Shown here in pieces: positions 6,201 to 59,338 of a stretch of DNA of 59,583 nt. The stretch is taken from contig CALMKE010000073.1 of NCBI GenBank assembly GCA_937867645.1, positions 1-59,583 on the forward strand, read 5' to 3'. Position 1 is the stretch's first letter. Each line of letters starts with the position of its first letter. The stretch comes from an uncultured Gemmatimonadota bacterium (GTDB taxonomy: Bacteria; Gemmatimonadota; Gemmatimonadetes; Gemmatimonadales; Gemmatimonadaceae). Made by a program: the position numbers and the translations under genes. A model generated the notes under the pieces. The model was not told where the DNA came from, did not search any database, and was given only the letters and a program-made list of their open reading frames with translations.

Positions 6201-6232
6201 GGTAACGCGTCACCGCCGGGACGTTCAGGCAT
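3227..6232 (-). CDS. Large ATP-dependent LuxR-family transcriptional regulator (AAA ATPase + TPR-like repeats + C-terminal LuxR HTH; MalT/LAL-like)
   Basis: 1001 aa. It has a Walker A motif GEGGVGKTRL near the N-terminus and a long helical-repeat middle region. The C-terminal LTAREIEIARMV...EIGAALKISARTVSTHLSNIFSKL is a LuxR-type HTH. Confidence 0.88.
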   Translation of the reverse strand: MPERPGGDALPLIGRAAELAELGAVLTAAAAGTASTVLLAGEGGVGKTRLVEAVAARAGKMGFAVAVGRAYPVETGVPYAAFADALVPMLRSLEPAQLTLLSRGGTAELRHIFPSLGPDGDDRRASSGADPSELKARLLWNFSQFLTRFAAKQPVLLVLENLQWADASSLELLHFLARQPRASSRVALIGTYNESQRDANEVLRTTEQSLLRLGAITVRRVEALTQPQVDELLQQKFGAAPAHTAHFAALLYDWTRGNPFFIEETLKSLMDSGRLVERDGRWTGWDTDSLDIPVTVREVLSERLDRLTPDAKTIAHLAAVIGTRAGYDVLRAVSGMADQDLVNALDELRSARVLIETGRDEGLAYDFAHPLFREVLYTGLGGARARLLHAQVAQSLETLYGATAALHADELAFHYSRAMSGDLAPKAVRYLTAAGLTAMEKYANREAADYLTAALEELDRQGKEDAGGQLVTTLARARQRLGQFDVAMELWSRALSDAERRGDRALVASVRHRMGLACYWAGRSQEAIEHYAPALEAATDATDPAMIVRIRLGRSICAQDVGRFDDAAADVNAALQEAEKVGNPALTARVHRALLLLHAWRGEIARAKEHGRKAVSLAEESGQKVLAWSAHWGMAMLAGLDSDAPGVVEHISAASRLADELRSPLLPLWTAELSVQYASGVGNWETGIATGERAIAAARALAQKALLPRLLVWTGTIHLWRGDHARALEMFEEAWRLSGAARGADRPVDIPSVVPAHLGMAAYHLATRNYAEAVKVGEAGLALADRAGHVVWAVQWLLPLITEAALYKADFETAERHTARLRSESKRLEHRLAAACALASEGLLTLLRDRDPAAAAKSLQRAAEELEKLQYPHFGARMRRQLARALVEAGDRERAARELRRAHDLFARLGAAAELDATREQLRTLGLRPPAKTVGEGAAGLTAREIEIARMVAARKANKEIGAALKISARTVSTHLSNIFSKLSVESRGELADYVREKGLL

Positions 6233-6321: not shown

Positions 6322-7734
6322 GTGCATTTTATGCTTCTTCGAACCCCTATGCCGATGACGCATACCGCGGATTCAGGAGTCGGCGCGGCGCGTGATGTAG
6401 TGCGCGCCCTTTTCGGCTCGCCTCCCGAGCGCGGATTCGACGTTCGCTACTGGGACGGAACCGAGGAAAAGGCCGGCGGCCCGCCGCGCGTGCCGTTCAC
6501 GCTGGTCGTGGCGCGTCGCGGCGCACTCAGGCGAATGCTCCTTCCGCCGAACGAGCTGTCTATCGTGGACGCGTACATCTCCGGCGATCTCGACGTCGAG
6601 GGCAGCCTCGAAGCCGCGGTCGCGCTCGGAGACGCAGTCGCCCGGCGAATCCGGGATCCGCGGGCGCTGCGCCGGCTGGCCCGGCTGATCCTGGCGCTCC
6701 CGGTGGACGACGACCCGGCGATCCATCGCACCAGGTTCCAGCGCGTCTCGGACTCGCTCACGCGCAAGCGCCGGCGCGGCGACGCCGAAGCGATCGAATT
6801 CCATTACGGCGTGAGCAACGAGTTCTACGAGCTCTGGCTCGACCCGATGATGCTGTACACCTGCGCGTATTTCCGGACCGGCGACGAGAGCATCGAGCAG
6901 GCGCAGCTGAACAAGCTCGAGCACATCTGCCGGAAGCTGCGGCTCAAGCGCGGCGACCGCTTGCTCGACATCGGCTGTGGCTGGGGCGGGTTGGTCCGGT
7001 ACGCGGCGAGGAACTACGGCGTGGAGGCGCTGGGAATCACGTTGAGCGAGTCCCAGGCGTCGTGGGGCCGCGAGCGCATCCGCATGGACGGACTGAGCGG
7101 TCGCTGCCGGGTGGAGGTCCGCGATTATCGCGATCTGCCGGCGGGTGAGCAGTTCGACAAGATCACGTCGGTCGGAGTGACGGAGCACGTACCCGCGGAC
7201 GAGCAGCCGGCGTATTTCGCGCGCGCGCATTCCCTGTTGCGGCCCGGTGGAGTTTTCCTGAATCACTGCGAAGTCAGCTTCGACCAGGCGAAAGGCGAGA
7301 GCCTCACGTCCAGGCTCGCGGCCAGGGTGTGGAAGCGCGGCGAGTTCATCCAGCGGTACGTGTTTCCAGACGCCCGGCTCGTGCCCGCGGCGCACGTCAT
7401 CGCCAGCGCGGAGCGGAGCGGGCTGGAGGTGCGCGACGTGGAGAGCCTGCGCGAGCACTACACGCTCACGCTCCGCCACTGGATCCGCGAGCTGGAGAGA
7501 AATCGGGAAGCGGCCATCGATCTCGTGGGCGAGCCGACATACCGTGTCTGGCGGCTGTACATGTCGGCCGGAGCGCACCGCTTCCACGCGGCGAAGTTGA
7601 ACATCATTCAGACGCTCCTGTCCAAGCCGCACCAGGACGGCCGGTCGGAGCTGCCGTGGACGCGCGAGGACATCTACGAGCGGCCCTACCCGAGCGAGCT
7701 GAAGGACAAGCTGGAGCTGCGGACGTCGGCCTAG
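6322..7734 (+). CDS. cfa: Cyclopropane-fatty-acyl-phospholipid synthase family SAM-dependent methyltransferase
   Basis: 470 aa. Family-typical strings are HYGVSNEFYELWLDPMMLYTCAYF, the SAM motif LLDIGCGWGGL, and YVFPDARLVP near the C-terminal part. The exact start is uncertain (several in-frame Met). Confidence 0.85.
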   Translation: MHFMLLRTPMPMTHTADSGVGAARDVVRALFGSPPERGFDVRYWDGTEEKAGGPPRVPFTLVVARRGALRRMLLPPNELSIVDAYISGDLDVEGSLEAAVALGDAVARRIRDPRALRRLARLILALPVDDDPAIHRTRFQRVSDSLTRKRRRGDAEAIEFHYGVSNEFYELWLDPMMLYTCAYFRTGDESIEQAQLNKLEHICRKLRLKRGDRLLDIGCGWGGLVRYAARNYGVEALGITLSESQASWGRERIRMDGLSGRCRVEVRDYRDLPAGEQFDKITSVGVTEHVPADEQPAYFARAHSLLRPGGVFLNHCEVSFDQAKGESLTSRLAARVWKRGEFIQRYVFPDARLVPAAHVIASAERSGLEVRDVESLREHYTLTLRHWIRELERNREAAIDLVGEPTYRVWRLYMSAGAHRFHAAKLNIIQTLLSKPHQDGRSELPWTREDIYERPYPSELKDKLELRTSA

Positions 7735-7746: not shown

Positions 7747-8940
7747 TCAGGTCGCCGCGAGGGTCTTCGTGGTGCGGCGCTTGGCGCGCAGCCGCTCCAG
7801 GGCGCGCCTGGCCTGATCCCGCCACTGCTCGCCGCTGACCAGGTTCGAGAAGCGTTCGTACAGCAGCGGTCCGCGGTGTGGCGGCTTCGTAAACGTGTAC
7901 CGCGGCGCCGGACGAAATTTCTCGCGCTCCACCGGGAAGGCGCTCAGGCAGTCCTTCTGCGAGACGAAGCAATCGTACATCTCCCGCTTGAGCATCTGCA
8001 GCTCGGGGGGCAGGTCCGCCTGCTTCGCGTCCACGCCGAAGAACGGGATGAACTCACCTACGGTGCGCTCGCCATCCTTGAAGTTGTACGAGGTGAATTC
8101 CAGCACGAGCGGCGCGGGCACTCCCTCGCGCCGCAGCATGCCGCACGCCAGGTGCACGGCGAACGCCGTCGCGTCGTGGTCGGTGTGCCCGCCTTCATAA
8201 GGATGGGTGAGCACCACTTCGGGGCGGAACTCGTCCAGCAGGTCCGCCATTGCGTAGGCGAGCTCGACCAGCCGGTCCGTGGCCTCGCCGTCCACGACGT
8301 TGAGGCAGCGCGTGCGCTCCGGTCCGACGCCCACCAGGCTCAGGGCCGCGGCCAATTCCTCCTGCCGCGCGCGCGCGTATTCCTCGCGCGTCGCGAACCC
8401 TTTCTTCTGCGCGTACACCGGATCGCGCGGCGCGCCGTCCGTGACGTGCACGATCAACGCGTTCGGCAAGCTCTTGAGTCGCGCGCCGACCCCGATTGCT
8501 TCGTCGTCGGGATGCGCCACGACCACGACGGTCCGCGGCGGTCTTTCCGCTTCGGTCCCGTCGATCAGCCTGTCGATGATCTGCTCGAGGCGCCGGCGCG
8601 ATGCGCGGAAGCGCGACTCGCGCTGCGTCGGGATCCACATGTGCGGCACATTCGCCGGCATCTGCAGAACCGGGCTCACCCATCCGCCGCCCGCGGTGTG
8701 CGGGACCGACGGCGATGCGGCGAGGCTGAACGTCAACGGAGGCGGAGGCGCCGATTCCGCTCGCTGCGAATGCCACTCGCCGGTCGCGGTCGTGATCATC
8801 TCCAACCTGGGGGGCGAGGAGACCGCTCCAGCCTGAATTCCCTCGGCGGGATTCTCGCCCGGCAGAACGAGCTTCGGACCCTGCACCGCCGGCTCCCGCC
8901 GGTCGCGGATGTTGTTGAAGTTCGGGTCCGCCGATGACAT
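7747..8940 (-). CDS. PIG-L/LmbE-family N-acetylglucosaminyl deacetylase with about 150-aa low-complexity N-terminal extension
   Basis: It carries the PIG-L signature VVVVAHPDDEAIGVG and a downstream HPYEGGHTDH metal-site-like motif. I prefer the ATG at 8940 because GAGGAG lies 10 nt upstream. The longer track ORF start (9039) would swallow the sigma-54-type promoter. Confidence 0.8.
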   Translation of the reverse strand: MSSADPNFNNIRDRREPAVQGPKLVLPGENPAEGIQAGAVSSPPRLEMITTATGEWHSQRAESAPPPPLTFSLAASPSVPHTAGGGWVSPVLQMPANVPHMWIPTQRESRFRASRRRLEQIIDRLIDGTEAERPPRTVVVVAHPDDEAIGVGARLKSLPNALIVHVTDGAPRDPVYAQKKGFATREEYARARQEELAAALSLVGVGPERTRCLNVVDGEATDRLVELAYAMADLLDEFRPEVVLTHPYEGGHTDHDATAFAVHLACGMLRREGVPAPLVLEFTSYNFKDGERTVGEFIPFFGVDAKQADLPPELQMLKREMYDCFVSQKDCLSAFPVEREKFRPAPRYTFTKPPHRGPLLYERFSNLVSGEQWRDQARRALERLRAKRRTTKTLAAT

Positions 8941-9013
8941 AAAAGCCTGCTCCTCAGCGCGGCGGCCGGCGAAACCGGCCAGGAGAAGTAACTCGTTTGC
9001 AAAACTCTGTTTA

Positions 9014-9028
9014 TGCAAAGTGCATGCC
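9014..9028 (-). promoter_or_regulatory. Sigma-54 (-24/-12) type promoter upstream of the PIG-L gene
   Basis: The minus strand reads GGCATG-CACT-TTGCA against the consensus GGCACG-N4-TTGCW. GG and GC are at exact consensus spacing. The site is about 75 nt upstream of the ATG at 8940. Confidence 0.55.
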
Positions 9029-9167
9029 CCCTCAGGCATTTCCTGACGGGTGTGACATCACAAATGTGGTGGACGATCGGCCAAGGTCCCGACGCGAATG
9101 GGTCGCCCGCCAATCCTCCGCGAGCGGCCGTGTCGAGAGCCGGCTTACCCCCGCGCCGGGAAGGACG

Positions 9168-9887
9168 TTACCTCGCTAGAGGGATCACCGTTTCCAGGCG
9201 GAAGAAGGTCGCGTCATCGCCGTCCGCGATGAGCTTCCGTCCGACACCGAACCCGAGGATGAACCCGGTTCCGTTGTGCCACTCGGCCACCAGCCCCGGC
9301 TGAGTCATGCTGAAATCTCCCGAGTTGGCGTAAGCTACCTCGCCGCCGACGCGGAACTGACCGCCGCCGGCCAGCTGACTGACCCGCGTCGTCACGCGCC
9401 CGCGGCCCCAGAAGGATTCGCCGCCGAAGTTGTAGCTGGCGAGCAGTTGATAGCCGAGCGGTCCACCCGTGCCCCAATGGTCCAGCGCGCCGCTTATCAC
9501 CACTCCGTCGCGGCTGTCTGTCACCGCGGTCCCGACGGGCGATACCCGGTCGTCATCGCTGACGAACGCGTAGCCGGCCGTGAACGCGAGCGATCCGCCG
9601 GGAAAGTTGTTCCTCAGCCCCGCGTACGGTCGCACCGAAAAAACGTTCTGCGTTTCCGTCGGAAGCTTGTAGGTCAGGTAATAAGACTGCACGCCGACCA
9701 GCGGCGACCAGCCCGGCCCACCGGGACCGGCGCTCACGCCGCCGAGGAGCAGCAGCGTTTCTTCCGTATCGTATTCGGCCACGCCGATCGCCGTGGCCTG
9801 CCATTGCGCCGCGGCCGGCTGTGCCAGCGCGAAAAGCGAGAACGCAATGCTTCCGAGTATTGCAGCCCGCTTCATTGTCGTTTTCAT
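9168..9887 (-). CDS. Secreted small beta-barrel-like protein (putative outer-membrane protein)
   Basis: It has a signal peptide MKTTMKRAAILGSIAFSLFALAQPAAAQ, and the body is Gly/aromatic-rich with alternating residues. GGAG lies 6 nt upstream of the ATG at 9887 (the track ORF starts at 9899). Confidence 0.6.
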   Translation of the reverse strand: MKTTMKRAAILGSIAFSLFALAQPAAAQWQATAIGVAEYDTEETLLLLGGVSAGPGGPGWSPLVGVQSYYLTYKLPTETQNVFSVRPYAGLRNNFPGGSLAFTAGYAFVSDDDRVSPVGTAVTDSRDGVVISGALDHWGTGGPLGYQLLASYNFGGESFWGRGRVTTRVSQLAGGGQFRVGGEVAYANSGDFSMTQPGLVAEWHNGTGFILGFGVGRKLIADGDDATFFRLETVIPLAR

Positions 9888-9987
9888 CGTCCACTCCATT
9901 CCGTTTCGTGTTCGAGCGGCCGTTCGCCGGCCGCTCGGTTTTCAGCAATCCCCCGCGAATTGCAAGTGCCGGTCCAATGGGGCCTCG

Positions 9988-11637
9988 TCAGGTCCGCCAG
10001 AATATCCGATTCCGCGTGAAATACTGAGCGATCACGACGACGACCACCGTCGAGACCAGGCTTCGCAGGATGGATTCGCCGGGGGATGCCCGCAATGCCC
10101 CGCGCATGGCCGGGATCATCTCCAGCAGCGAGTTCAGGAAGACGGTGTACAGCACGTACACCAGCATCGGGTTGTGACCGACGTCTATCAAAGGCCGGAC
10201 GACTCTTCTCAGTCCGAGCACGTCCACGATGGCCACCAGCGCGACCATCACCATCATCGTGATTCCGGTGACCGTGAAGAAATAGGACAGCGTATCGGGG
10301 ACCTTCTTGATGCCGCCCTCGAAGGGGTCGAGCACCAGGCCGAGCAGAAGCCAGAGCGCGCCCCACGAAAAGAGCCGCTGGAGCAGCAGCTCGGTGGAAG
10401 ACGTCGGCCGCCACGTGAGCACCGCGCCGAGCGCGCAGAGCGCGATCGCGATCTGGGTCGTTTCCTGCACCCAGCGGTTGTACAACCCGACGACCACGAG
10501 CGGTGCCATCGCCAGGCTGAGCATGGCGAGCAGAGTGATTCGCGAGGTGCCCCATCCCGGGCCAGCGGTGCCGCCCGGCGGCGGCGCAGGGGATCTCATC
10601 CACTGGAGCAGGACGTCGCCCGCAATCGTACCGGGTATCACGACCGCGAGCAGCGTCAGCTGGCTCGGCTGCAACAGCCACGGCGCAGGAGAGCTCCACC
10701 AGAATGACTGGATCCACCCCTCACCACGCGCGCCCAGATACAGGGCCAGCGTCGCGGCCAGCACGACCAGCCGCGCGTTGAGGTTCTCCCGGGTGAAATA
10801 CCACACGATCGAGCCGGCCAGCGCCGCGAACGCGAGGCCGGCGATGATGTCGTCGCGTCGCGTTGGCGTGAACGTGCCGTCGTACACCAGCGGCGACAGC
10901 GCCAGGAACAGTATCGCGGCAATCCAGCCGGCCCTGTTCACCAGCGCGAACTTGCGCTCGTCCCAGTCCTTCCGGCGCCGGGTGAATATCAGGAACATGA
11001 TGAAGAAACCAACTATCGCGAGCGCGCGCCCCTCCTGGGTGTAGCCGACGAAGAACGTGTTCGAGTGTCCGATCAGGAGGGCGAACACGAACAGCATGAA
11101 GAAGCGCCGAATGGCGGCGAGTACGATCGCGACCTCGGTTTCTCCGCGCTCGATGCGGCGCGAGAGCGTTATCGGGAGCGCGGCCGCCATCGTGAACAGG
11201 AATGCCGCGTACGCGAGATCCCGCCACGTGATGCCCGCGATGTCCACGAGATTTCCCGGCGGTGGAAACTGCCGGTGATACATCCAGCCCGGGAAATAGC
11301 TGCCGTGAATGGTGAAGCCGAGCGTCATGCTGATCAGGAACAGGCCGCGCAACGCGTCGAGGCTGTGCGCGCGGCGCGGCGCGGCGACGGGATCTCCCGG
11401 CGGCGCGATTCCGACATCGGCGGGAGACGCGCCGACGTCCGGAACGGCCGAGCCGGCTGCGTCTCCGAGCAGACTTCGCGCGGCGACGGCGGTCTGCGGC
11501 GGGGGAAGCAGACCCGGCTCGAATCCGCTGGGCTCGCCGGGTCCGCCGCCGTGCACCGGACCGTGGACCACGATCGGTCGCTCTTCCAGGGACCGATCGG
11601 CGCTCACGATCGAGGTGGCCGACTTATCGTGCCGCAC
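9988..11637 (-). CDS. Multi-pass membrane protein resembling the HGSNAT / DUF5009-DUF1624 transmembrane acyltransferase family
   Basis: The motif RRAHSLDALRGLFLISMTLGF is followed by about 10 hydrophobic segments. The GTG at 11637 is preceded by AAGGAGAAAGGAG with 5-nt spacing. It overlaps the upstream synthase stop by 14 nt. An N-terminal stretch of about 100 aa is disordered. Confidence 0.7.
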   Translation of the reverse strand: MRHDKSATSIVSADRSLEERPIVVHGPVHGGGPGEPSGFEPGLLPPPQTAVAARSLLGDAAGSAVPDVGASPADVGIAPPGDPVAAPRRAHSLDALRGLFLISMTLGFTIHGSYFPGWMYHRQFPPPGNLVDIAGITWRDLAYAAFLFTMAAALPITLSRRIERGETEVAIVLAAIRRFFMLFVFALLIGHSNTFFVGYTQEGRALAIVGFFIMFLIFTRRRKDWDERKFALVNRAGWIAAILFLALSPLVYDGTFTPTRRDDIIAGLAFAALAGSIVWYFTRENLNARLVVLAATLALYLGARGEGWIQSFWWSSPAPWLLQPSQLTLLAVVIPGTIAGDVLLQWMRSPAPPPGGTAGPGWGTSRITLLAMLSLAMAPLVVVGLYNRWVQETTQIAIALCALGAVLTWRPTSSTELLLQRLFSWGALWLLLGLVLDPFEGGIKKVPDTLSYFFTVTGITMMVMVALVAIVDVLGLRRVVRPLIDVGHNPMLVYVLYTVFLNSLLEMIPAMRGALRASPGESILRSLVSTVVVVVIAQYFTRNRIFWRT

Positions 11638-13999
11638 TGTCGCTCCTTTCTCCTTGCAGCAGCAGCACCTCTCCGCTCGCCTCCAACCGGGTTTGATTCG
11701 ACTCGGGGCCGGCACGCGACGCGCCGTTGGTGAGCCGCGGATCCGGCACACGCTGGACGCTGAGCTCTATCCCCATGCTGAACAGCACCTGGATCGGCGT
11801 CTCCAGCACGCGTACGTGTCGCACGATGCCGGCGAGAGTGATCGGCGCGCCGGTCACGTCGACCGCGATGGCCGAGCCCGGCGGAATCGGCGCGTCGCCG
11901 ACGACTCTCGCCCCCTTCGCGCTCATCTCCTCGAGGATCACCATCTGTGGCAGCTCGAGCATCTCGCCGGCAGGCTCGTTCATGACCGAGACCGTCGCCG
12001 GCAGCCCGATGATCCGCCTGCGGTCGCCGCGCAGGTTGCGAACAACCTCGTGGGTCCGCGTGATGATGTCGATGGACTGGCGATACTTGAGCCGCCACAT
12101 CGGCATCGCGTGCTGCGTGCAGTGCAGCTCGATCGCGTCGCGCACCTCGATCGGGAGATCGCCGAACTCGACGCCGTGCATGTACACGTCGCCGAAGCGC
12201 GAGGGCTCCTGGTGGACGAATCGAACCTCTCCGAACGTCCACACGCGCTCGGTCGCGAGCGGAAGCTGCATGGCCACGGCGGTGCCCGATTCGACTTTAT
12301 GGGTGGCGCGGAAGCCGAGGCCCGTGGGGTTCAGATCCACCGTGATCGCGGGAAACACCGTCGCGTCGGTGGCGCCCTCGGTACGCACCTGGATCGGAAG
12401 CTGCTCCAAGAACCGGTGGTCCTGTCGCTGCTGGCGCATCCGCAGGGTGTGCCGCACGACGTACGCGGCAAAGCTCACGTTCCACAAGACCCAAACGAGA
12501 TTGACCCAAAACGCCAGCGCGCCCCACCCCGGCGCGGTGTAGTTGATCCAGCCGTTGTAGTACGCGATCGAGGCCCAGATCGGAGCGGCGATCGAGAGCA
12601 GCAGCAGCACGAGCTGCGGCGCGTACGCGCTCTTCGGGACCGCAGTCTTCCCCTTCGGAGTCACGTTGAACTTGAGCGGGCGCCTGGTGAAGATGGCCAG
12701 CGCCGCCATCATGTACGTCCAGACGCGGATCATCGTAAAGCGCTCGGTCATGAGCAGGTAGCCCGTGCCGCGCGACATCAGCTCGAACGTGAGGATAGAC
12801 AGAATGAGGTAGGGGACGAGCCTGATGAGGAACTCGCGCTCGCTCCCCGCGACGGGAAGGATGCCGGTAAAGAAGAAGAACAGCGGCATCAGATAGAAGA
12901 TTGCCTTCTGCCAGCCTTCGAAATACGTCGCGGTCCCCGCGAAGTAGTTCAGCCGCTGCGGAAACGTGAGGCCGCGCTTCGTGAGCGGCTTGATCTTGCG
13001 CAGGACCTGCATCGCGCCCTGGCCCCAGCGCAGGCGCTGGACGTGATACGCCGCGGCCGCTCCCGGCGCGAGGCCGTATGCCAGCGTCTCGTTGTGGTAG
13101 GCCGACTTCCACCCCTTCGCCTGCAGCTCGATGGTCGTCTCCATGTCCTCGATGATCGTCCTGGAGGCGAAGCCGCCGATGTCTTCCAGCGCGGACCTGC
13201 GGAGAATTCCACAGCTGCCGCAGAAGAACGACGCGTTCCAGTTGTCGCGGCCGGGCTGAATGAGCGAATAAAAGATCCGGTTTTCCTCCCACAGCCTGCG
13301 GCCCTCGTCGTTCACGATGTGGGTGAAGGAATCGACGTTGTAGAAATCCTGAGGAGACTGCACGACCGCCATCTTCGGGTCGCGGAAGTGGCCGAGCATG
13401 CGGTCGAGTATGCTCGGCAACGGCACATGGTCCGCGTCGAGCTGCAGGATGAACTCTCCCTCCGTCACGCTCAGCGCGAAGTTGAGGTTGCCGGCCTTCG
13501 CGTTCGCGTTACCGACGCGGCGGATGTACCCGATGCCCAGTTCGGCCGCCATCGCGCGCACTTCCTCGCGCTTTCCGTCGTCCAGCATGTAGGTCCGGTG
13601 CGGATACCGGATCGCGCGCGCGCCCATCGCGGTTCTGCGCAGAACCTCGAGCGGCTCGTCGTAGCACGTGATGAAGACGTCTACCTTCTTGCCGGCCGGC
13701 GCGGGCCCGGGATCGCGCTGGCGAAGCCGCCATACGAGAAAGACGAACAGGCACATGTTGATGTAGGCCCACGTCTCGGCCAGCATCAAAAGGAGCGACG
13801 GGACGATCGCCCGCGGCTCCGTGTTGATCGTGTTCGTCCAGCGCCATCCGATCCAGTAGGTGGCGTACACGACGGCGATAACTGCGACCGTCCGGATCAT
13901 CCTCTCCCGCCACTCCGGGAGCACCGGCGTGGCGATGCGAACCCTCTCGGCGGAAGGAGTCGTGGGACTGGAGTCCGGAGGGCTCAATTCGTGCTGCAT
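11624..13999 (-). CDS. Cellulose-synthase-like (BcsA-like) family-2 glycosyltransferase with two C-terminal PilZ-like modules
   Basis: 791 aa. GT2 processive-synthase motifs are present: YMLDDG, LQLDADH, IIEDME and QRLRWGQG (QxxRW), flanked by TM helices. The C-terminus has RQDHR...DLNPTG and RGDRR...EMSAKG, i.e. RxxxR plus D/NxSxxG-like pairs. Confidence 0.88.
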   Translation of the reverse strand: MQHELSPPDSSPTTPSAERVRIATPVLPEWRERMIRTVAVIAVVYATYWIGWRWTNTINTEPRAIVPSLLLMLAETWAYINMCLFVFLVWRLRQRDPGPAPAGKKVDVFITCYDEPLEVLRRTAMGARAIRYPHRTYMLDDGKREEVRAMAAELGIGYIRRVGNANAKAGNLNFALSVTEGEFILQLDADHVPLPSILDRMLGHFRDPKMAVVQSPQDFYNVDSFTHIVNDEGRRLWEENRIFYSLIQPGRDNWNASFFCGSCGILRRSALEDIGGFASRTIIEDMETTIELQAKGWKSAYHNETLAYGLAPGAAAAYHVQRLRWGQGAMQVLRKIKPLTKRGLTFPQRLNYFAGTATYFEGWQKAIFYLMPLFFFFTGILPVAGSEREFLIRLVPYLILSILTFELMSRGTGYLLMTERFTMIRVWTYMMAALAIFTRRPLKFNVTPKGKTAVPKSAYAPQLVLLLLSIAAPIWASIAYYNGWINYTAPGWGALAFWVNLVWVLWNVSFAAYVVRHTLRMRQQRQDHRFLEQLPIQVRTEGATDATVFPAITVDLNPTGLGFRATHKVESGTAVAMQLPLATERVWTFGEVRFVHQEPSRFGDVYMHGVEFGDLPIEVRDAIELHCTQHAMPMWRLKYRQSIDIITRTHEVVRNLRGDRRRIIGLPATVSVMNEPAGEMLELPQMVILEEMSAKGARVVGDAPIPPGSAIAVDVTGAPITLAGIVRHVRVLETPIQVLFSMGIELSVQRVPDPRLTNGASRAGPESNQTRLEASGEVLLLQGERSDSAAR

Positions 14000-14170
14000 G
14001 CGCTTATGGAGTCACTTGTGTGTGTCGCCCAGGACGGCTTGCTGACCCGACCCGCAAACCCTCAGGTATCGACGTCGTGACCTGCCGCAGAATGCCAGTT
14101 GTGTGCCCGGCCACATCCCGAGCGCTTGTCTAAGGCGATGCAGCGCAGCGATAAACGAATGAATCGGCGC

Positions 14171-14185
14171 GGCCTGCTCTTTGCA
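14171..14185 (+). promoter_or_regulatory. Candidate sigma-54-type promoter upstream of the DUF3131-like gene
   Basis: GGCCTG-CTCT-TTGCA, with GG and TTGC at consensus spacing, lies 31 nt upstream of the ATG at 14216. It would be inside the gene if an earlier in-frame start (14099 or 14159) were used. Confidence 0.3.
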
Positions 14186-14215
14186 TTTCGGTCCCCAAAT
14201 GCCGAACGCTCAGCC

Positions 14216-15538
14216 ATGAGCAGGAGCCTGGTGGAAAAGATGCGAGTTGGAAGTCTGATACTTGTCGTCAGCGCGCTGACGGTGAGCGCGCATGCGTGCG
14301 GGGAGGCCCAGGAGAGCAACGCCGCCGAGCCGGTGGTCGAGCTCCAGAGCGGCGCTACGCCGCCGATGGTGGCGCGCGCCGAGCTCACGGCAGAGGACCG
14401 GGCCTTTTACCAGGAAGCGGCACGCCTCGCCTTGCGGTACATGGAAACCAACTACCAGCCGAGTACAGGCTTCGTGAACGCCACGCCGGATTGGGCGTAC
14501 ACCACCATCTGGGACATCGGCGCCCAGCTTCTCGCCTTTCATGCCGCGAAGGAGCTCGGGCTCATCACGCAGGCACAATACGACCAGCGGACGAGCAAGA
14601 CGCTCAACACCCTTGAGCGCCTGCCGCTTTTTCGCGGGCTGGCCTACAACAAGGCGTACTCGACTCGCGACGGCTCGATGGGCAACGGAGCCAAGCAGGG
14701 CGGCATCGGCTGGTCCGCCACCGATCTTGGACGAATGCTTGTCGCGCTCAAGGTGATAGCGACGCGCGAGCCACAGTACGCCGAGCAGGCGGAGCGAATC
14801 GTCCGCCGCAACAAGTTCGGCGAGATCATCAAGAACGGCTATCTACACGGACAACTGATCGGCGCCAGCGGCCGGCCATGGACGTTCCAGGAAGGCCGCA
14901 TCGGATACGAGCAGTACGTGGCTGCCGGATTCGATCTCTGGGGCGGCGAGGTGGACAACGCCCTGAACCTCCGGCGGAACGGCCGGCCGGTGAAGGTGCT
15001 GGGAGTCGAGCTTCTGCTCGACACACGCTGGAACGACCGGCTGCTGAGCGAGCCGTTCTACCTGCTCGGCATGGAGCTCGGACTTACCGGCGACATGCGT
15101 AGCCTCGCCGTGAACGTGCTGAAGGCGCAGGAAGCGCGGTTCAACCAGACGGGCCAGGTCACCATCGCCACCGAGGACGCGGTCGGCGTCCCCCCGCACT
15201 ACTTCTACTACTACTGCGTCTACTGCAACCGGAAGCCGTTCGTCATCGACATCGCGATCCCGGGCCGGGAGATGGATTCACCGCGCTGGGTGAGCACCAA
15301 GGGCGCCTTTGGCTGGAACGCGATCCTGCCGAGCGCGTACACGCAACGCGCGCAGGACCTCGTGGCCGGAGCGCGCGACGCGGAGCGCGGCTGGGCGTCG
15401 GGAGTGTACGAGAAGACTTCGGCCTCGACGCGCACTTATGACATCAACACGGCGGCCGTCATTCTCGAAGCCGCGGCGTACCAGCTCCGCGGCGGAAAGC
15501 CGCACATACAGGCGGCTACGGCCAGCGCGGCTAACTAG
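14216..15538 (+). CDS. Lipoprotein-like secreted protein, DUF3131-like (possible alpha/alpha-barrel glycan-binding or hydrolase fold)
   Basis: The signal/lipobox-like N-terminus is MSRSLVEKMRVGSLILVVSALTVSAHAC. From memory, the body (…TPDWAYTTIWDIGAQLLAFHAAKELGLI…) resembles DUF3131-family proteins. An alternative start at 14237 has GGTGGA 5 nt upstream. Confidence 0.6.
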   Translation: MSRSLVEKMRVGSLILVVSALTVSAHACGEAQESNAAEPVVELQSGATPPMVARAELTAEDRAFYQEAARLALRYMETNYQPSTGFVNATPDWAYTTIWDIGAQLLAFHAAKELGLITQAQYDQRTSKTLNTLERLPLFRGLAYNKAYSTRDGSMGNGAKQGGIGWSATDLGRMLVALKVIATREPQYAEQAERIVRRNKFGEIIKNGYLHGQLIGASGRPWTFQEGRIGYEQYVAAGFDLWGGEVDNALNLRRNGRPVKVLGVELLLDTRWNDRLLSEPFYLLGMELGLTGDMRSLAVNVLKAQEARFNQTGQVTIATEDAVGVPPHYFYYYCVYCNRKPFVIDIAIPGREMDSPRWVSTKGAFGWNAILPSAYTQRAQDLVAGARDAERGWASGVYEKTSASTRTYDINTAAVILEAAAYQLRGGKPHIQAATASAAN

Positions 15539-16516
15539 CTAGCCGCGTCGCGCGAGACCGATCGCGTACTCCGTCCACCACTGACCCGCGCGCGGGTTGC
15601 CGCGGCCGCATTCGCCATCGGACTCACCCGGTAGCTTCACCCAGAGAAAGGCGTCCACGAGCTGGTGGCCGGTCTGCGTCGTGGGCGCGCGGCCCAGCGC
15701 GCCCTGCGCGTTGCACCACTCCCCGTTGGCGCTCCCGATTCCGTTGCGGCTCGTGTCGATGATGAAGTGCTTTCCGCCCACGCGCCGCGACACCTGCTCG
15801 CCGTAGGCGATGTTGGCCGGATTGGTGATGTAGTTCGAGATGTTGAGCGCGAAGCCGTCAGCCATGTCGATGGCGGATTCCGACAGCCGCGACGCGATGA
15901 CTTCCGGCCGCTGCCACCTGGCGTGCCCCGCGTCGAGATACACGACGGCGTTCTTCGCCTTGAGCACCTGCACCGCGTCCCGCATCAGCGCGAACCGCTC
16001 CGCGCGTTGCGCGGGCTTGAGGCAATCCGCGCCGGCCAGCGCGTCCGGCTCGAGGATGACTACCGCTTTGCGGCCGGACAGCCCCTCGGCGAATTCGCGG
16101 ATCCAGCGCTTGTAGCCGCTCGCGCTGCGCTGTCCGCCCGCGGAGTAAGAGCCGCAATCCCGGTTGGGAATGTTGTACGCGACGAATACCGGCAGCGCGC
16201 CGGCGCGCGACACGGCCGCGACCGCGGCCTGCACGTCGCGGCGGATGTTCGAGTTCCAGTCGCCCATCCACTTCGCGGTCGGCTGTGAGGCGATCCGCTC
16301 CAGCGCGGCGGCGTCCGCCGGCCGCGTGCGGCGAAGCTGCTCGGCGCTCCGGCGTGCCGGCGAGTTCGGATCGACGTACAGCCGCGACCCGCCCAGGGGA
16401 TTCGTGGCCGTGGAGCGCTGCGCCTGAGATGCGACAGGGACGAGCGCCAGCGCCGACGCAACCGCCAGAACGGCGCGCCCGAGCACACGAATCTGTTTGG
16501 CGTTCAGTGTCACCAT
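15539..16516 (-). CDS. Glycoside hydrolase family 6 (beta-1,4-glucanase type), catalytic domain only, secreted
   Basis: GH6 strings are present: VAYNIPNRDCGSYSAGG, ILEPDALAG, YLDAGHARW, ALNISNY, IIDTSRNG and WVKLPGESDG. The ATG at 16516 is preceded by GGAGG at 5-nt spacing, and the signal peptide is MVTLNAKQIRVLGRAVLAVASALALVPVASQAQ. Confidence 0.88.
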   Translation of the reverse strand: MVTLNAKQIRVLGRAVLAVASALALVPVASQAQRSTATNPLGGSRLYVDPNSPARRSAEQLRRTRPADAAALERIASQPTAKWMGDWNSNIRRDVQAAVAAVSRAGALPVFVAYNIPNRDCGSYSAGGQRSASGYKRWIREFAEGLSGRKAVVILEPDALAGADCLKPAQRAERFALMRDAVQVLKAKNAVVYLDAGHARWQRPEVIASRLSESAIDMADGFALNISNYITNPANIAYGEQVSRRVGGKHFIIDTSRNGIGSANGEWCNAQGALGRAPTTQTGHQLVDAFLWVKLPGESDGECGRGNPRAGQWWTEYAIGLARRG

Positions 16517-16598
16517 GCCGGCCTCCTCAACCGCATCTCGCTTGCCACACTTCGTTTGACGGACGCCCAACCGGAACGTTTACCGGTCGCGCGCAGCG

Positions 16599-17672
16599 CT
16601 ACGGCGTTCGCTTGGCGAGCTCCAGGGCATACTCCGGCCACCATTTTCCGGCGGCGGGCGCGCCGTCGCAGGCGCCGTCCGATTCACCCGGCGGCTTGAT
16701 CCACAGGTACGCGTCCACCAGCGGGTTCGCCGTGACGGCGGAAGGGGGCGCGCCCAGCGCGCGACCCGGAGGATTGCACCACTGGTAATCCACGGTCGCG
16801 CCCAGTCCGTTCCGCCCGGTGTCGATGATGAAGTGCTTGCCGCCAACGAGCGCGGATATCTGCTCGCCGTAGGCGGTATTGAGCGAAGTCGCGATGAAGT
16901 TCGACACGTTGAGGGCGAACCCGTCGGCGGTCGAGATGCCGGCGAGGTTCAGGCGACGCGCCATTTCGCTCGCGGAGTGCCAGGCCGGATGCCCCGCGTC
17001 GAGGTACACGTGCGCGCCTTTGCCCTTCAGCGCCTGGATCGCGTACCTGATGAGGTCCATGCGACTCGCCTGATCGGCGGCCGAGAGGCAGCCCATGTTG
17101 GCCAGCGCGTCCGGCTCGAGGATGACCGCGGCCTTCCGCCCGGCGATGGCGTTCGCGAACGAGGTGATCCACGTCCGGTAGCTCGCAGCCGTCGCGCCGC
17201 CCCCGCCCGAGAGTCCGCCACAATCGCGATCCGGGATGTTGTACGCGACCAGAACCGGAAGCGCGCCCTGCGATTCAGCCGCGCTCATCGCGCCGGTTAC
17301 CGCGCTGTAGACGTCACCGACCCACTCGTTGAACCAGCGGGCCTGGGACCGCACCGCGATCTTCTCCAGCTGATCGGCGTCGGCGGGACGCGCAGCACGC
17401 CATTCGTCCGCGGTTCTGCGCGCGTTCGAATTGGGATTGACGTAGAGCTTCTGACCCGCGAACGGATTCGCCGAGCTCGACGGCGCCGGGCTCGATCCGC
17501 CCGCGGTCGTCGTGCCGGTACCGGGTCCGACCAGCCCTGCTCCGTCGCCGCCGCAGGCTGCGAGCGCCGTCACGCCCATCGCGCCGATGAGGAACGATCG
17601 CGCGCGCGCGGAAATGTCGCGTCGTACCGGCGCGAATTTTCTGGCCCGCTGAAAGCGCAGCGACTTGTCCAT
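16599..17672 (-). CDS. Glycoside hydrolase family 6 paralog, lipoprotein-like, catalytic domain only
   Basis: It has the same GH6 strings: VAYNIPDRDCGGLSGGG, ILEPDALAN, YLDAGHPAW, ALNVSNF, IIDTGRNG and WIKPPGESDG. The N-terminus ...GVTALAACGG is lipobox-like, followed by a Gly/Thr/Ser/Pro linker. Confidence 0.88.
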   Translation of the reverse strand: MDKSLRFQRARKFAPVRRDISARARSFLIGAMGVTALAACGGDGAGLVGPGTGTTTAGGSSPAPSSSANPFAGQKLYVNPNSNARRTADEWRAARPADADQLEKIAVRSQARWFNEWVGDVYSAVTGAMSAAESQGALPVLVAYNIPDRDCGGLSGGGGATAASYRTWITSFANAIAGRKAAVILEPDALANMGCLSAADQASRMDLIRYAIQALKGKGAHVYLDAGHPAWHSASEMARRLNLAGISTADGFALNVSNFIATSLNTAYGEQISALVGGKHFIIDTGRNGLGATVDYQWCNPPGRALGAPPSAVTANPLVDAYLWIKPPGESDGACDGAPAAGKWWPEYALELAKRTP

Positions 17673-26439: not shown

Positions 26440-27046
26440 AACGCTGCGGCTCGTCGCCGTAACGGCCGAGCCCGGCAAGGACCTGTCGCGTTGGGCGGGA
26501 CAGGTCGCGGCCGCGGTTCGCGGCGGCGCCACGATGGTGCAAGTGAGGGCGAAGGAAACGCCGGCGCGCGATCTGATCGAGATCGTCCGGCAGTTGGTGT
26601 CGTCGCTGCCAGTGCCCGTGATCGTTAACGACCGCGCGGACATCGCCATCATCGCCGGCGCGGCGGGCGTGCACCTCGGCGCGGACGATCTCCCGGTTGA
26701 CGCGGTCCGCGCTTTCGCCGTGCCGTCGTTCATCATCGGCGCCTCGCTCGGATCGAGCGCGGAGCTGGAGTCGGCGCGCGAAGCCGATTACGTGGGAATC
26801 GGGCCCGCGTTCGTCACGGCTTCCAAGTCGGACGCGGGCCGCCCGCTCTCCTTCGAGGAGATAGCGGCGTTGGAGCGAATGGCCGGCGCGCCGGCCGTTG
26901 CCATCGGAGGAATTTCCGCCGCGAACGCCGGGGAGTTGCTGGCGCGCTGTCCGAGACTCGCGGGAGTGGCCGCGCTCAGCTCGCTGTTCGGCGCCGACGA
27001 CGTGGAGAGCGCCGCGCGGGCTTTGCGGGCCGCCAGCGGAAGATGA
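26306..27046 (+). CDS. thiE: Thiamine-phosphate synthase
   Basis: ThiE strings are present: GGATMVQVRAKE, VIVNDRADIAIIAGAAGVHLGADDL, YVGIGPAFVTASK and AIGGI. The only canonical start in frame is the ATG at 26306, 134 nt inside mltG. The conserved domain begins near 26444, so the true start is unresolved. Confidence 0.8.
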   Translation: MNSGARSTSTTPSGRDSAPTVIAAPQRGPFPRQPARSRLPRVSAETLRLVAVTAEPGKDLSRWAGQVAAAVRGGATMVQVRAKETPARDLIEIVRQLVSSLPVPVIVNDRADIAIIAGAAGVHLGADDLPVDAVRAFAVPSFIIGASLGSSAELESAREADYVGIGPAFVTASKSDAGRPLSFEEIAALERMAGAPAVAIGGISAANAGELLARCPRLAGVAALSSLFGADDVESAARALRAASGR

Positions 27047-27776
27047 GGTCGGGCGCGGACTGGACGCGCTCGCCGCGGCGATTGTGCCGCTTCCCGCGGT
27101 CGCCTGGCTCGACTCTGATTTTGGCGATACTCTCCTGAACGACGGGTGAGAGGAACAGATCCACGAGATCGGGATCGAACTGGGTGCCGCGCCCCGCCAG
27201 TAGCGCTTCGCGCGCTTCGCGCAGGCTGCGCGCGCGGCTGTACCGTCGCCGGTGCGTGATCGCGTCGAACGCGTCCACGATCGCGACGATTCGCGCGGCC
27301 TGCGGGATGTGGCGTCCCTTCCGCCCCCGCGGATAACCCCTACCGTCCCACCGCTCATGGTGCGCCAGCACACCCGCGGATAGATCGGGATAGAAGGCGC
27401 ACAGCGGCTCGAGGACTTCCGCGCCGCGAAGGGGGTGGGTCATGATCGCCCGCTTCGCGTCCGGCGAGAGCTTGCTCGGATCGTGCAGGATGTCGAACAG
27501 CGCCTCGTGGATCTTGCCGATGTCGTGGAAGAGCGCGACACGCTCCACGCTGCGCTTCTCGTGCTCGGAGAGTCCCGCGGCATCCGCCAGCTCCAACGCG
27601 TACTGCGCCACGCGCCGCACGTGCTGGCCCGTGTCCTCGTCGTTCGCGTCGATCGCGTTCAGCAGGGTCTCGAGCGTGGCCGAGCCGAGCCGGAGGGCCT
27701 GTTGGTAGATGCGCCGCTGGCGCATAGCTAGCAGAGCCGCGGCGGCGCCGACGGCAAACTGGAAGATCGCAAGCAT
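26976..27776 (-). CDS. HD-GYP domain protein (c-di-GMP phosphodiesterase family), single N-terminal TM
   Basis: The HD motif (ALFHDIGK) and HHERWDGRGYPRG (GYP) are present. I use the start at ATG 27776 (MLAIFQFAVGAAAALLA). The 3' end overlaps the thiE 3' end convergently by 71 nt. Confidence 0.85.
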   Translation of the reverse strand: MLAIFQFAVGAAAALLAMRQRRIYQQALRLGSATLETLLNAIDANDEDTGQHVRRVAQYALELADAAGLSEHEKRSVERVALFHDIGKIHEALFDILHDPSKLSPDAKRAIMTHPLRGAEVLEPLCAFYPDLSAGVLAHHERWDGRGYPRGRKGRHIPQAARIVAIVDAFDAITHRRRYSRARSLREAREALLAGRGTQFDPDLVDLFLSPVVQESIAKIRVEPGDRGKRHNRRGERVQSAPDLIFRWRPAKPARRSPRRRRRTAS

Positions 27777-27839
27777 TCGGCAGCCCCCAATGCAAGAACC
27801 GGCGCATCTGCCTGCCGGCGGTCGCGCTAACTTCAGGTC

Positions 27840-54377: not shown

Positions 54378-54408
54378 GGCGCTCCGGCAATGGCTAGATG
54401 AGGAAGGA

Positions 54409-54579: not shown

Positions 54580-54603
54580 CGAAGTCGATGCCTTCCTTCA
54601 CGG

Positions 54604-57548: not shown

Positions 57549-57554
57549 TGAGCG

Positions 57555-59290: not shown

Positions 59291-59338
59291 CGTCAAACTC
59301 CACGTGCTATGAGCGCCCGGCGAATCTAGATTGCCCCT

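Follow-up and report, generated by a model that had tools for sequence, protein, structure and literature searches.

What does a BcsA-type synthase make, and by what route would its product leave the cell, when the genes around it are not those of a Bcs operon? This question is raised by a locus from a member of the Gemmatimonadaceae (phylum Gemmatimonadota), described as a soil bacterium; the window, that is, the whole stretch of DNA analysed, is 59.6 kb long. An earlier sequence-only reading had listed GT2, PilZ, DUF5009, PIG-L, DUF3131 and two GH6 domains at this locus. Profile-HMM searches of the ORFs with Pfam confirmed all seven at their coordinates, the HGSNAT-like/DUF5009, PIG-L and GH6 assignments included. 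The explanation that we judge moderately probable is a Gemmatimonadota-type, Bcs-related β-glucan system, gated by c-di-GMP, lacking BcsB, BcsC and the GH8 enzyme BcsZ and equipped with an acyl-modification module. The set of helper proteins around this known cellulose-synthase-like machine is unusual and largely uncharacterised; no DUF3131, DUF5009 or BcsS protein is known to have been biochemically characterised (PMC12423673).

The synthase, a BcsA-like processive GT2 protein of 791 aa, is encoded at 11624-13999 on the minus strand (Pfam Glycos_transf_2, E = 7.9e-19; PilZ, E = 2.6e-12). The motifs DDG (residues 140-142), DAD (188-190), ED (284-285) and QRLRW (321-325), reported earlier as a processive-synthase set, can be read directly off the translation, along with FFCGS (258-262) and the gating-loop sequence FNVTPK (444-449); all of these are invariant in the alignment of synthase homologues. 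Among solved synthases, BcsA is by far the closest (E = 8e-82 for the E. coli and 1e-62 for the R. sphaeroides protein). The NCBIfam CelA model (TIGR03030) gives 404.8 bits, below its equivalog cut-off of 699; the PgaC model and those of NodC and other GlcNAc-polymerising enzymes give 65 and 25 bits (cut-offs 422 and 550). The C-terminal part carries two PilZ domains in tandem, the first with R525xxxR529 and D555xNxxG560, the second with R657xxxR661 and E691xSxxG696. The second domain, an addition to the earlier PilZ call, was found by hhalign comparison of residues 518-640 with 641-752 (probability 97.7%, E = 2e-12). Two features of this module count against the favoured explanation: the first domain has DxNxxG, not DxSxxG, and the second is not recognised by Pfam. 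The HMM matches and motifs uphold the proposal of a synthase-dependent system built on a PilZ-bearing BcsA-type GT2.

The proposal that BcsB, BcsC and GH8 BcsZ are missing, with GH6 enzymes encoded instead, holds in the window and in the 79 related loci found, nearly all of them labelled Gemmatimonadota. Among the 46 ORFs scanned in the window, BcsB, BcsC/TPR-porin and GGDEF had no match, and GH8 was not found in the window either; BcsB, BcsC and GH8 BcsZ were also absent from the related loci. The HD-GYP-type gene noted earlier beside the lack of GGDEF is present at 26976-27932 (minus strand; Pfam HD_5, E = 2.2e-28), 9 kb from the locus with housekeeping genes between, and is given as context only. 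Other Gemmatimonadota loci also have HD-GYP-like families (c10 and c17) in the neighbourhood of the synthase. A large LuxR-type regulator gene (3227-6232, minus strand; AAA_16-TPR-GerE by Pfam) adjoins the locus in L001, L004 and L006, and its counterparts are found directly downstream of the synthase in a GT2-PilZ clade of paralogues (L017-L031 and L077); by this association, it is possibly a transcriptional regulator of the synthase family.

The sequence-only reading had staked its case on the neighbours being co-conserved with the synthase in related genomes; such co-conservation was found, and on this point the reading therefore stands. In the window's own clade (n = 9), DUF3131 and DUF5009 are present in 9/9 loci, and the barrel, GH6 and PIG-L in 8/9 each. 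Outside it, DUF3131 occurs in 15/15 other non-paralog loci. Across the related loci, the barrel is common, and so is a glucanase of the GH6 or a GH26-like family. The barrel, GH6 and PIG-L genes are not always synthase-adjacent, which counts against the favoured explanation, and gene order differs among sub-clades. On one 443-kb contig, the minimal unit of DUF3131 beside GT2-DUF5009 is flanked by housekeeping genes. GT2 and DUF3131, accompanied by OpgC or PIG-L, recur in Salmonella and Paracoccus (both with OpgC), Mesorhizobium and Nostoc, where a PIG-L gene follows the glycosyltransferase; a Klebsiella locus with GT2, DUF3131 and an OpgC acyltransferase has been reported (PMC12974863).

The protein encoded at 9168-9899 (minus strand) has an AlphaFold2 model (pLDDT 88.7) with a signal-peptide helix and 12 strands. 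Its Foldseek matches are exclusively membrane β-barrels, comprising OmpG, FapF, autotransporter and invasin β-domains, the COG4313 channel and KdgM among natural outer-membrane barrels and one designed transmembrane barrel; the model suggests a 12-stranded outer-membrane protein. It is probably a member of a divergent BcsS branch, as judged from Pfam CBP_BcsS, which matches 14 of the 40 proteins in its family (best E = 1.1e-8). The window barrel has no Pfam match of its own, falling below the CBP_BcsS threshold, a point against the favoured explanation. The earlier description as a small secreted barrel-like protein stands, and the barrel proves to be no orphan. BcsS is a named Bcs accessory, itself uncharacterised. 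In 12 Longimicrobium-type loci, barrel and synthase form a single in-frame fusion. The two secreted GH6 catalytic domains were borne out. GH6a (15539-16570, minus strand; Pfam E = 1.1e-62) is a secreted endoglucanase-like enzyme with the catalytic-Asp motifs RDCG and EPDAL in its translation; among solved proteins it comes closest to Cel6/CelA1 of M. tuberculosis (E = 3.5e-75) and endoglucanase E2 of T. fusca (E = 6.5e-55). Its paralogue GH6b (16599-17672, minus strand; E = 6.4e-64), about 54% identical to GH6a in cross-matches, has a lipoprotein-type signal with a good lipobox (LAAC). The nearest characterised relatives of the GH6 genes are endo-β-1,4-glucanases, and the tandem pair is kept in L001 and L007.

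Of all its partners, the synthase is most closely linked to the DUF3131 gene, treated earlier as a side feature; the two adjoin in every one (24/24) of the non-paralog loci that have 5 kb or more of flanking sequence on both sides. The gene is divergently transcribed (14099-15538, plus strand; Pfam DUF3131, E = 1.7e-98), its true start is likely the ATG at 14217 and its product is predicted to be exported or membrane-anchored. The earlier label of DUF3131-like lipoprotein is sound as to family; the lipoprotein part depends on one N-terminal hydrophobic segment followed by a Cys in an atypical lipobox (SAHAC), a Cys that the consensus of the aligned homologues also shows. The AlphaFold2 model (pLDDT 83.7) has an (α/α)6 fold, the top 18 Foldseek matches are all β-1,2-glucan enzymes (GH144, GH192, GH194, GH162 or GH189), and the family profile matches cyclic glucan synthases in their GH189 domain (E = 7e-7 and 1.4e-3). 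By fold and profile, the protein appears closest to the β-1,2-glucanase/cyclic-glucan-synthase (GH-S) clan. The characterised enzymes of this clan all act on β-1,2-glucan, not cellulose (PMC12102758), which counts against the favoured explanation. Instead of a matrix polymer of cellulose type, the product could be an OPG-like or cyclic/short-chain glucan, periplasmic or released; the GT2 would extrude a linear glucan, the TmAT acyltransferase would decorate it as OpgC does and the narrow 12-stranded barrel would pass oligosaccharides. Along with the kinship of DUF3131 to GH189 cyclisation domains and β-1,2-glucan enzymes, the OpgC acyltransferases of the Salmonella, Paracoccus and Klebsiella loci, the KdgM-type oligosaccharide porins among the barrel's matches and the absence of a large BcsC-like porin agree with such a product. 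We nevertheless consider it unlikely, since the GT2 is far nearer BcsA than other solved synthases and keeps FFCGS and the PilZ-gated loop, the co-conserved GH6 genes resemble those of endo-β-1,4-glucanases, the barrel comes from a cellulose-operon family, and OpgH and OpgG are absent here.

The DUF5009 protein (9988-11637, minus strand; Pfam DUF5009, E = 3.8e-44, full-length) is a transmembrane acyltransferase of the HGSNAT clade and TmAT superfamily with at least 11 hydrophobic segments; it matches human HGSNAT (E = 2e-8, RxxSxDxxRG region included) and, weakly, the NagX C-terminus. As described earlier, there is a 14-nt overlap on the minus strand, here between the GT2 stop and the GTG start of DUF5009, and a Shine-Dalgarno sequence, AGGAG, 5 nt ahead of this start; both point to translational coupling to the synthase. 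The PIG-L/LmbE-family deacetylase (7747-9039, minus strand; Pfam PIG-L, E = 1.9e-22) has its domain at aa 171-298 (about 8146-8529), after a variable N-terminal extension, with the motifs AHPDDE and HTDHD in the translation and the BshB and MshB models among its matches. Because the window protein has no hydrophobic segment at all, and its homologues have no signal peptide and variable, non-hydrophobic N-termini, it is predicted to be cytoplasmic, not extracytoplasmic. The idea that the acetylation state is edited outside the cytoplasm is thereby retained at most for DUF5009 and lost for PIG-L. The two genes are a pair travelling together in a subset of loci, present jointly in 11/13 well-flanked loci having either. 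HGSNAT-clade and PIG-L enzymes have GlcN/GlcNAc as classical substrates, which counts against the favoured explanation. A proposal that goes back to the sequence-only reading is a GlcN/GlcNAc polymer with edited N-acetylation; PIG-L would de-N-acetylate a GlcNAc substrate, necessarily cytoplasmic, and DUF5009 would re-N-acetylate glucosamine residues at the inner membrane's outer face. The HGSNAT and NagX matches, the de-N-acetylation of GlcNAc conjugates by the PIG-L family and the co-inheritance of the pair fit this proposal. It is improbable in our estimation, given a synthase far below the GlcNAc-polymerising models, partners from glucanase families (GH6 and GH26-like), PIG-L without DUF5009 in L037, L045 and Nostoc, and OpgC, of an O-succinyltransferase family, in DUF5009's place in proteobacterial GT2-DUF3131 loci. 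N-acetyl chemistry is a candidate activity of DUF5009, a family whose activities are predicted ones and which shares the TmAT superfamily with O-acyltransferases such as OpgC and AT3 (PMC12423673). That there is no integrated system and a lone BcsA paralogue lies beside catabolic or salvage genes (GH6 and DUF3131 glucanases; NagX-like and PIG-L amino-sugar salvage) is very improbable: GH6, GH-S clan, NagX-like and CE14 enzymes each have relatives that are catabolic and gene order varies, but DUF3131 linkage spans the phylum and is met again in four further lineages, GT2 and DUF5009 appear translationally coupled, the barrel fusions exist, and the Pfam scan found no sugar transporters or kinases within the locus.

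The analysis shows which genes are present, how they are ordered and conserved, the PilZ tandem and the folds assigned from AlphaFold2 models; from these we infer the polymer and mechanism of the c-di-GMP-gated β-glucan system as follows. Binding of c-di-GMP by the tandem PilZ module would release the conserved FxVTxK gating loop; the GT2 would then polymerise a UDP-sugar (the likeliest substrate being UDP-glucose and the likeliest product a β-1,4-linked, cellulose-like chain) and thread the chain through its own membrane channel. DUF3131, as an anchored (α/α)6 enzyme of the GH-S clan, may take BcsB's place in receiving the chain in the periplasm and may trim or transglycosylate it. DUF5009 would move an acyl group, probably acetyl, from cytoplasmic acyl-CoA to the emerging glycan. 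Passage across the outer membrane would be via the 12-stranded BcsS-like barrel, and the GH6 pair, one lipid-anchored and one soluble, may have a BcsZ-like role in trimming and release. The cytoplasmic PIG-L, co-inherited with DUF5009, could act on an acetylated cytoplasmic sugar (a precursor, primer or recycled fragment).

Compared with known systems, the locus resembles PgaABCD of PNAG synthesis in combining a synthase, a deacetylase and an outer-membrane barrel under c-di-GMP control; it differs in its GT2, far under the PgaC cut-off, in its cytoplasmic PIG-L-type rather than periplasmic CE4 deacetylase, and in its 12-stranded barrel without a TPR domain. Streptomyces CslA-GlxA-CslZ is described as joining a cellulose-synthase-like GT2, without BcsB, to a GH6 enzyme; PilZ domains and a diderm host with an outer-membrane barrel set the present locus apart, and Pfam scans found no GlxA-type copper oxidase in the window. 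OpgH-OpgG-OpgC and Cgs follow the same logic, in which a membrane GT2 works with a TmAT acyltransferase and an enzyme that processes the glucan in the periplasm, and the GH189 cyclisation domain of Cgs is remotely homologous to DUF3131; here, however, the synthase is of BcsA type, not OpgH (GT2) or Cgs (GT84), and is PilZ-gated, with GH6 partners and without GH186 OpgG/D. The uncharacterised GT2-DUF3131 loci (plasmids or accessory blocks of Salmonella, Klebsiella and Pantoea; Paracoccus, Mesorhizobium and Nostoc) have a BcsA-like glycosyltransferase adjoining one to three DUF3131 genes, a TmAT acyltransferase (OpgC) or PIG-L, and a secreted glycanase, at 27-37% identity for the window DUF3131 and 28-33% for GT2. 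Their glycosyltransferases lack PilZ and have partner-switching genes (STAS, anti-sigma and SpoIIE) as neighbours, the glycanases belong to GH16, GH2 or a GH26-like family, not to GH6, and BLAST found no BcsS-like barrel in them. With Bcs types I-III (BcsA-BcsB-BcsC/BcsK-BcsZ) the locus has in common a true homologue of BcsA (GT2 motifs, FFCGS, FxVTxK loop and C-terminal PilZ), a secreted glucanase encoded alongside and, through the barrel, the BcsS accessory family. Unlike them, the window and related loci lack BcsB, BcsC/BcsK and GH8 BcsZ, GH6 (or GH26-like) enzymes stand in for GH8, and PilZ is duplicated in tandem here; Bcs components as reviewed do not include DUF3131, DUF5009 or PIG-L (PMC8892547). 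The acylated-cellulose systems (Pseudomonas Wss, Komagataeibacter BcsX/BcsY and clostridial Ccs) also encode a membrane acyltransferase with the cellulose synthase, BcsY being described as polytopic and located in the inner membrane (PMC8892547); in Wss and Ccs the components are of MBOAT and SGNH type, whereas the DUF5009/HGSNAT clade and a cytoplasmic PIG-L are found here. The earlier statement that the gene mix fits no described cellulose, PNAG, Pel or CslA architecture is too strong, since the barrel falls in the BcsS family and transmembrane acyltransferases are already known from cellulose operons, in BcsY and the Wss/Ccs systems (PMC8892547).

The locus at 7747-17672 is read here, with moderate confidence, as a Bcs-related, c-di-GMP-gated system of synthase-dependent β-glucan production; the reading draws on sequence comparison, structure models and synteny in uncultured genomes. 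The window has a GC content of about 67%, and its placement in the Gemmatimonadaceae follows from the homologues of its proteins. Seven genes make up the locus, and all show coding-type GC3 except the barrel ORF, which was not listed by the GC3 filter. The reverse strand carries a PIG-L gene (7747-9039; Pfam E = 1.9e-22), a small protein predicted to form a barrel (9168-9899; no Pfam match of its own), a DUF5009 gene (PF16401; 9988-11637; E = 3.8e-44 over positions 1-259 of 260, full-length) and a 791-aa GT2 synthase with a PilZ domain (11624-13999; 7.9e-19 and 2.6e-12). On the other side lie a forward-strand DUF3131 gene (14099-15538; E = 1.7e-98) and two reverse-strand GH6 genes (15539-16570, GH6a, and 16599-17672, GH6b; E = 1e-62 and 6e-64). 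An earlier, sequence-only reading of the window had assigned the PIG-L, DUF5009, GT2 with PilZ, DUF3131 and two GH6 domains, and Pfam bears it out. The 14-nt overlap and Shine–Dalgarno sequence that it reported are also present: the GT2 stop overlaps the GTG start of the DUF5009 gene, and an AGGAG box lies 5 nt upstream of this start. Its statement that the window holds no GGDEF gene agrees with the 46 ORFs scanned, among which none matched; an HD-GYP-type gene (HD_5 in Pfam) is found at 26976-27932.

The remaining ORFs of the window are mostly housekeeping genes, including those of isocitrate dehydrogenase, Rho, RuvX, YceG, a PBP and TyrRS. At the right end (53214-59306) is a separate glycan-related block, which encodes two glycosyltransferases of family GT4, an ABC exporter in which TMD and NBD are fused, and a PglZ-domain response regulator. 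A cyclopropane-fatty-acyl-phospholipid-synthase-like methyltransferase (6322-7734) is located between the PIG-L gene and a large regulator gene and is syntenic with the locus in two related genomes (L004 and L006).

Residues 39-568 of the synthase align to E. coli BcsA (E = 8e-82), and R. sphaeroides BcsA matches with E = 1e-62; the NCBIfam CelA equivalog gives 404.8 bits, under its cut-off of 699. The DDG, DAD, ED and QRLRW motifs listed by the earlier reading are seen in the translation, together with the FFCGS acceptor and FNVTPK gating-loop motifs, and all are invariant in the synthase alignment (DDG140-142, DAD188-190, FFCGS258-262, ED284-285, QRLRW321-325, FNVTPK444-449). The protein thus has the D,D,D,QxxRW pattern, the FFCGS motif and the FxVTxK gating loop of BcsA-type GT2 enzymes. 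Its first PilZ domain (residues 523-627) retains R525xxxR529 and a D555-L-N-P-T-G560 motif with Asn in the usual Ser position. A second, C-terminal module has conserved R657xxxR661 and (D/E)691-x-S-x-x-G696 motifs; the isolated C-terminal 160 aa have no Pfam PilZ match at E ≤ 1. In a profile–profile comparison built from 116 family members, however, hhalign matched residues 518-640 to 641-752 with a probability of 97.7% (E = 2e-12) and both motifs in register, showing the synthase to have tandem PilZ domains. The C-terminal PilZ character of Bcs synthases is therefore present, as DxNxxG in the first domain and (D/E)xSxxG in the second, and we infer on good grounds that the synthase is gated by c-di-GMP.

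GH6a matches M. tuberculosis Cel6/CelA1 best (E = 3.5e-75) and T. fusca endoglucanase E2 next; GH6 membership is indicated by the HMM matches and by the RDCG and EPDAL catalytic Asp motifs, both retained in GH6a. The signal of GH6b is of the lipoprotein type (LAAC). Elsewhere, a GH26-like gene takes the place of GH6 in Longimicrobium and Nostoc loci, and GH16 is found in a Paracoccus locus; the glycanase slot is conserved and the family filling it is variable.

The AlphaFold2 model of the small protein, built on a 40-sequence alignment, is confident (pLDDT 88.7) and consists of a signal-peptide helix followed by 12 β-strands. A Foldseek search of the PDB returned membrane β-barrels exclusively: the natural outer-membrane matches were OmpG, FapF, autotransporter and invasin/intimin β-domains, a COG4313 channel and KdgM, and one designed transmembrane barrel was also among the matches. 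The window protein does not match CBP_BcsS (PF17036) even at E ≤ 10, nor any other Pfam family. This family is matched by 14 of the 40 aligned homologues (48-85% identical to the window protein; best E = 1.1e-8), and two checked homologues exceed its gathering score. On the strength of these homologues, the barrel is a candidate divergent member of the BcsS family, which is named as an accessory of type I bcs operons and is so far uncharacterised (PMC8892547). Twelve Longimicrobium-type loci have no stop codon between synthase and barrel, which form a single ORF (L048-L050, L054, L055, L057, L058, L066, L068, L070, L074 and L079; for example, L049:8819-12964). The two were grouped together in ORF clustering as real in-frame fusions, and the fused barrel part keeps its own Met, a hydrophobic signal-peptide-like helix and an AxA site. 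The fusion offers independent evidence that synthase and barrel cooperate; it implies a putative polyprotein of inner-membrane synthase and outer-membrane barrel, or else internal initiation. Taken together, the similarity to BcsA, the FFCGS motif, the GH6 partners and the BcsS relationship make a β-1,4-linked polymer the most likely product.

The affinities of DUF3131 leave some room for a different product. Its AlphaFold2 model (pLDDT 83.7, ordered from about residue 95) is α-helical, with an (α/α)6-like fold, and the top 18 Foldseek matches in the PDB are all β-1,2-glucan enzymes of the GH-S clan (E = 5e-9 to 2e-6, TM 0.5-0.65), generic six-hairpin enzymes ranking below them. The model thus shares the fold of this clan (GH144/162/189/192/193/194), whose defining residues (XcSGL E239, Y367 and F286) are set out in PMC12102758. 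The family profile also matches GH189 by sequence (8WY1, E = 7e-7; the Cgs entries 8RF9/8RF0, E = 1.4e-3), where homology could be detected across no more than 100-120 N-terminal positions of the profile (49-147 with 8WY1, 49-165 with Cgs); single-sequence phmmer against the PDB gave a marginal match (E = 0.003). No characterisation of DUF3131 was found in the literature searched that mentions it. The GH-S affinity would suit an OPG-like or cyclic glucan, which is considered unlikely.

The chemistry of the modification pair bears on another alternative. The DUF5009 protein has at least 11 hydrophobic segments, in keeping with the core of 10 or more TM helices that marks the HGSNAT/DUF5009 clade; with its full-length HMM match and the DxxR(G) motif in TM1, it belongs to this clade. 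Human HGSNAT matches it with E = 2e-8, and the match takes in the RxxSxDxxRG region of TM1 (HSLDALRG aligned to RSVDTFRG); the NagX equivalog gives 28 bits against a cut-off of 480. According to a 2025 structural survey, DUF5009, HGSNAT, AT3 and OpgC constitute one transmembrane acyltransferase (TmAT) superfamily, in which DUF5009 is intermixed with HGSNAT; none of the DUF5009 proteins has been tested (PMC12423673). The PIG-L protein carries the metal-site motifs VVAHPDDEAIG and GGHTDHD (AHPDDE/HTDHD), and these and the HMM match assign it to PIG-L/LmbE (CE14-type) enzymes, under every equivalog cut-off (BshB, MshB and Mca). A scan of its sequence found no hydrophobic segment, and the N-termini of its homologues vary, are not hydrophobic and lack signal peptides. 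The enzyme is predicted to be cytoplasmic, contradicting, as regards PIG-L, the sequence-only proposal that acetylation is edited outside the cytoplasm. HGSNAT and PIG-L chemistry would suit a polymer containing an amino sugar. As a member of the same superfamily, the OpgC encoded in proteobacterial loci is the counterpart of DUF5009, so that O-acylation and N-acetylation are equally plausible; the amino-sugar polymer is rated slightly less likely than the OPG-like or cyclic glucan.

Scanning one genome per species gave 79 loci, with synthases of 46-86% identity, from Gemmatimonadaceae, Longimicrobiales and Longimicrobium; all but two are labelled Gemmatimonadota, the exceptions being labelled only ‘bacterium’ and Gammaproteobacteria. 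Neighbours were counted by tblastn of the window proteins only where a locus had 5 kb or more of sequence on each side, as 33 loci did. In the window's own clade (at least 62% identity, n = 9), DUF3131 and DUF5009 are each found nine times, and barrel, GH6 and PIG-L eight times each. The other non-paralog loci (n = 15) all have DUF3131, with DUF5009 in three, the barrel in at least ten, GH6 in eight and PIG-L in four, and all five are missing from the nine loci of a paralogous synthase clade (55-57% identity). Of the 13 well-flanked loci that encode DUF5009 or PIG-L, 11 encode both. The sequence-only reading had staked its proposal on co-conservation of the neighbours with the synthase, which these counts uphold; coincidental clustering of the genes is highly improbable. 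On a 443-kb contig the unit is reduced to DUF3131 facing GT2-DUF5009, flanked by housekeeping genes, which indicates that synthase and DUF3131 form the core and that the other parts are frequent, separable additions.

In the paralogous clade (L017-L031 and L077), the gene after the synthase always encodes a homologue of the 1001-aa AAA-TPR-LuxR regulator found in the window at 3227-6232, and an HD-GYP protein and a HEAT-like protein of 720 aa are often encoded nearby. The window's copy lies 1.5 kb from the locus; as a cytoplasmic regulator, it was ruled out as a substitute for BcsB or BcsC. Three Gemmatimonadaceae loci (L009-L011) have two synthase paralogues back to back, with PIG-L, the second GT2 and DUF3131 on one strand, GT2, DUF5009 and barrel on the opposite strand, and a second DUF3131 gene further on. 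Membrane-anchored proteins of some 420 aa that carry a phosphatase-like CX5R motif (HCGLGRDR) and have no significant Pfam match form an ORF family (c9), which recurs beside barrel or synthase (L035, L038, L045, L052, L059-L061, L065, L069 and L074) and is absent from the window. Another (c17; L048, L049, L057, L073 and L079), with TPR, HD-GYP-like and receiver domains, is encoded directly upstream of the Longimicrobium synthase, a position that suggests local control of c-di-GMP turnover.

Outside Gemmatimonadota, a tblastn search of a plasmid collection found the GT-DUF3131 pairing in four lineages. The Nostoc locus has two DUF3131 genes, a GH26-like gene, a GT and PIG-L; Salmonella has OpgC, a GT and three DUF3131 genes; Paracoccus has the same set and two GH16 genes; and Mesorhizobium has a GT2 and one DUF3131 gene. 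These GTs are BcsA-like, 28-33% identical to the window GT2 and, unlike it, without PilZ; genes for STAS, anti-sigma and SpoIIE proteins adjoin them. Synthase and DUF3131 thus form an uncharacterised module that crosses phyla. Adjoining OpgC on the Salmonella plasmid (CP053577.1; L081, 6467-7366) is a gene for a 299-aa secreted protein, aromatic- and Gly-rich, with WFLPI at its end and no Pfam match; it could form a barrel in the outer membrane, as an analogue of the BcsS-like protein. In Klebsiella, a GT2-DUF3131-OpgC block ranks with the loci that show the strongest association with the ecocline of the species (PMC12974863), and such blocks on enterobacterial plasmids carry relevance beyond Gemmatimonadota.

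A broader proposal is tentative, well short of even probability: GT2 and DUF3131 might mark a class of BcsA-like synthases that spans phyla and is independent of BcsB, with DUF3131 as a new GH-S hydrolase/transglycosylase family and obligate periplasmic partner. The product would then be something other than plain cellulose, such as a β-glucan that is acylated, length-limited, branched or cyclic. To this machinery Gemmatimonadota would add tandem-PilZ gating and the BcsS barrel, the latter made in Longimicrobium as a polyprotein with the synthase. Synteny across the phylum, translational coupling and gene fusion tie three families with no tested function, DUF3131, DUF5009 and BcsS, to one well-understood c-di-GMP-gated BcsA-type engine. 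Testable roles follow for DUF3131 as periplasmic partner or processing enzyme, DUF5009 as transmembrane acyl donor and BcsS as outer-membrane conduit. Gemmatimonadota are a little-studied phylum, and their matrix or envelope glucan, once known, would inform its ecology.

Among known systems, PNAG, Pel and CslA-GlxA were ruled out by model scores and window scans. The synthase is far from PgaC, NodC and other NCBIfam models: PgaC_IcaA scores it at 65.3 bits against a cut-off of 422, and, whereas PNAG systems have a periplasmic CE4 de-N-acetylase, the deacetylase of the locus is of PIG-L type without a signal peptide. Streptomyces CslA-GlxA-CslZ employs a GlxA copper radical oxidase partner and a synthase without PilZ; the synthase of the locus has PilZ, and the window scans gave no oxidase-type match. 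Canonical Bcs requires BcsB, BcsC and GH8, none of which matched in the 46 window ORFs. The 79 related loci hold no conserved periplasmic family of BcsB size, the window has neither BcsC (TPR and a 16-stranded porin) nor BcsK, its sole outer-membrane component being the 12-stranded barrel, and two GH6 genes stand in place of the GH8 BcsZ. The locus would work like Bcs with a different accessory set: DUF3131 would take the periplasmic-partner position of BcsB, the BcsS-type barrel the outer-membrane position of BcsC and GH6 the role of BcsZ, and the TmAT acyltransferase and cytoplasmic deacetylase would form an added modification branch. The literature recognises cellulose systems that lack BcsB/BcsC and use other exporters, their outer-membrane export mechanisms still to be determined (PMC8892547), and acyltransferases of bcs operons are already known (BcsY, Wss and Ccs), so the locus is not categorically new. 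It bears on the function and export of cellulose-synthase-like enzymes that lack BcsB and BcsC, and its noteworthy features, as predicted, are the obligate DUF3131 partner, the tandem PilZ domains, the BcsS barrel with its synthase fusion and the coupling to an HGSNAT-clade enzyme.
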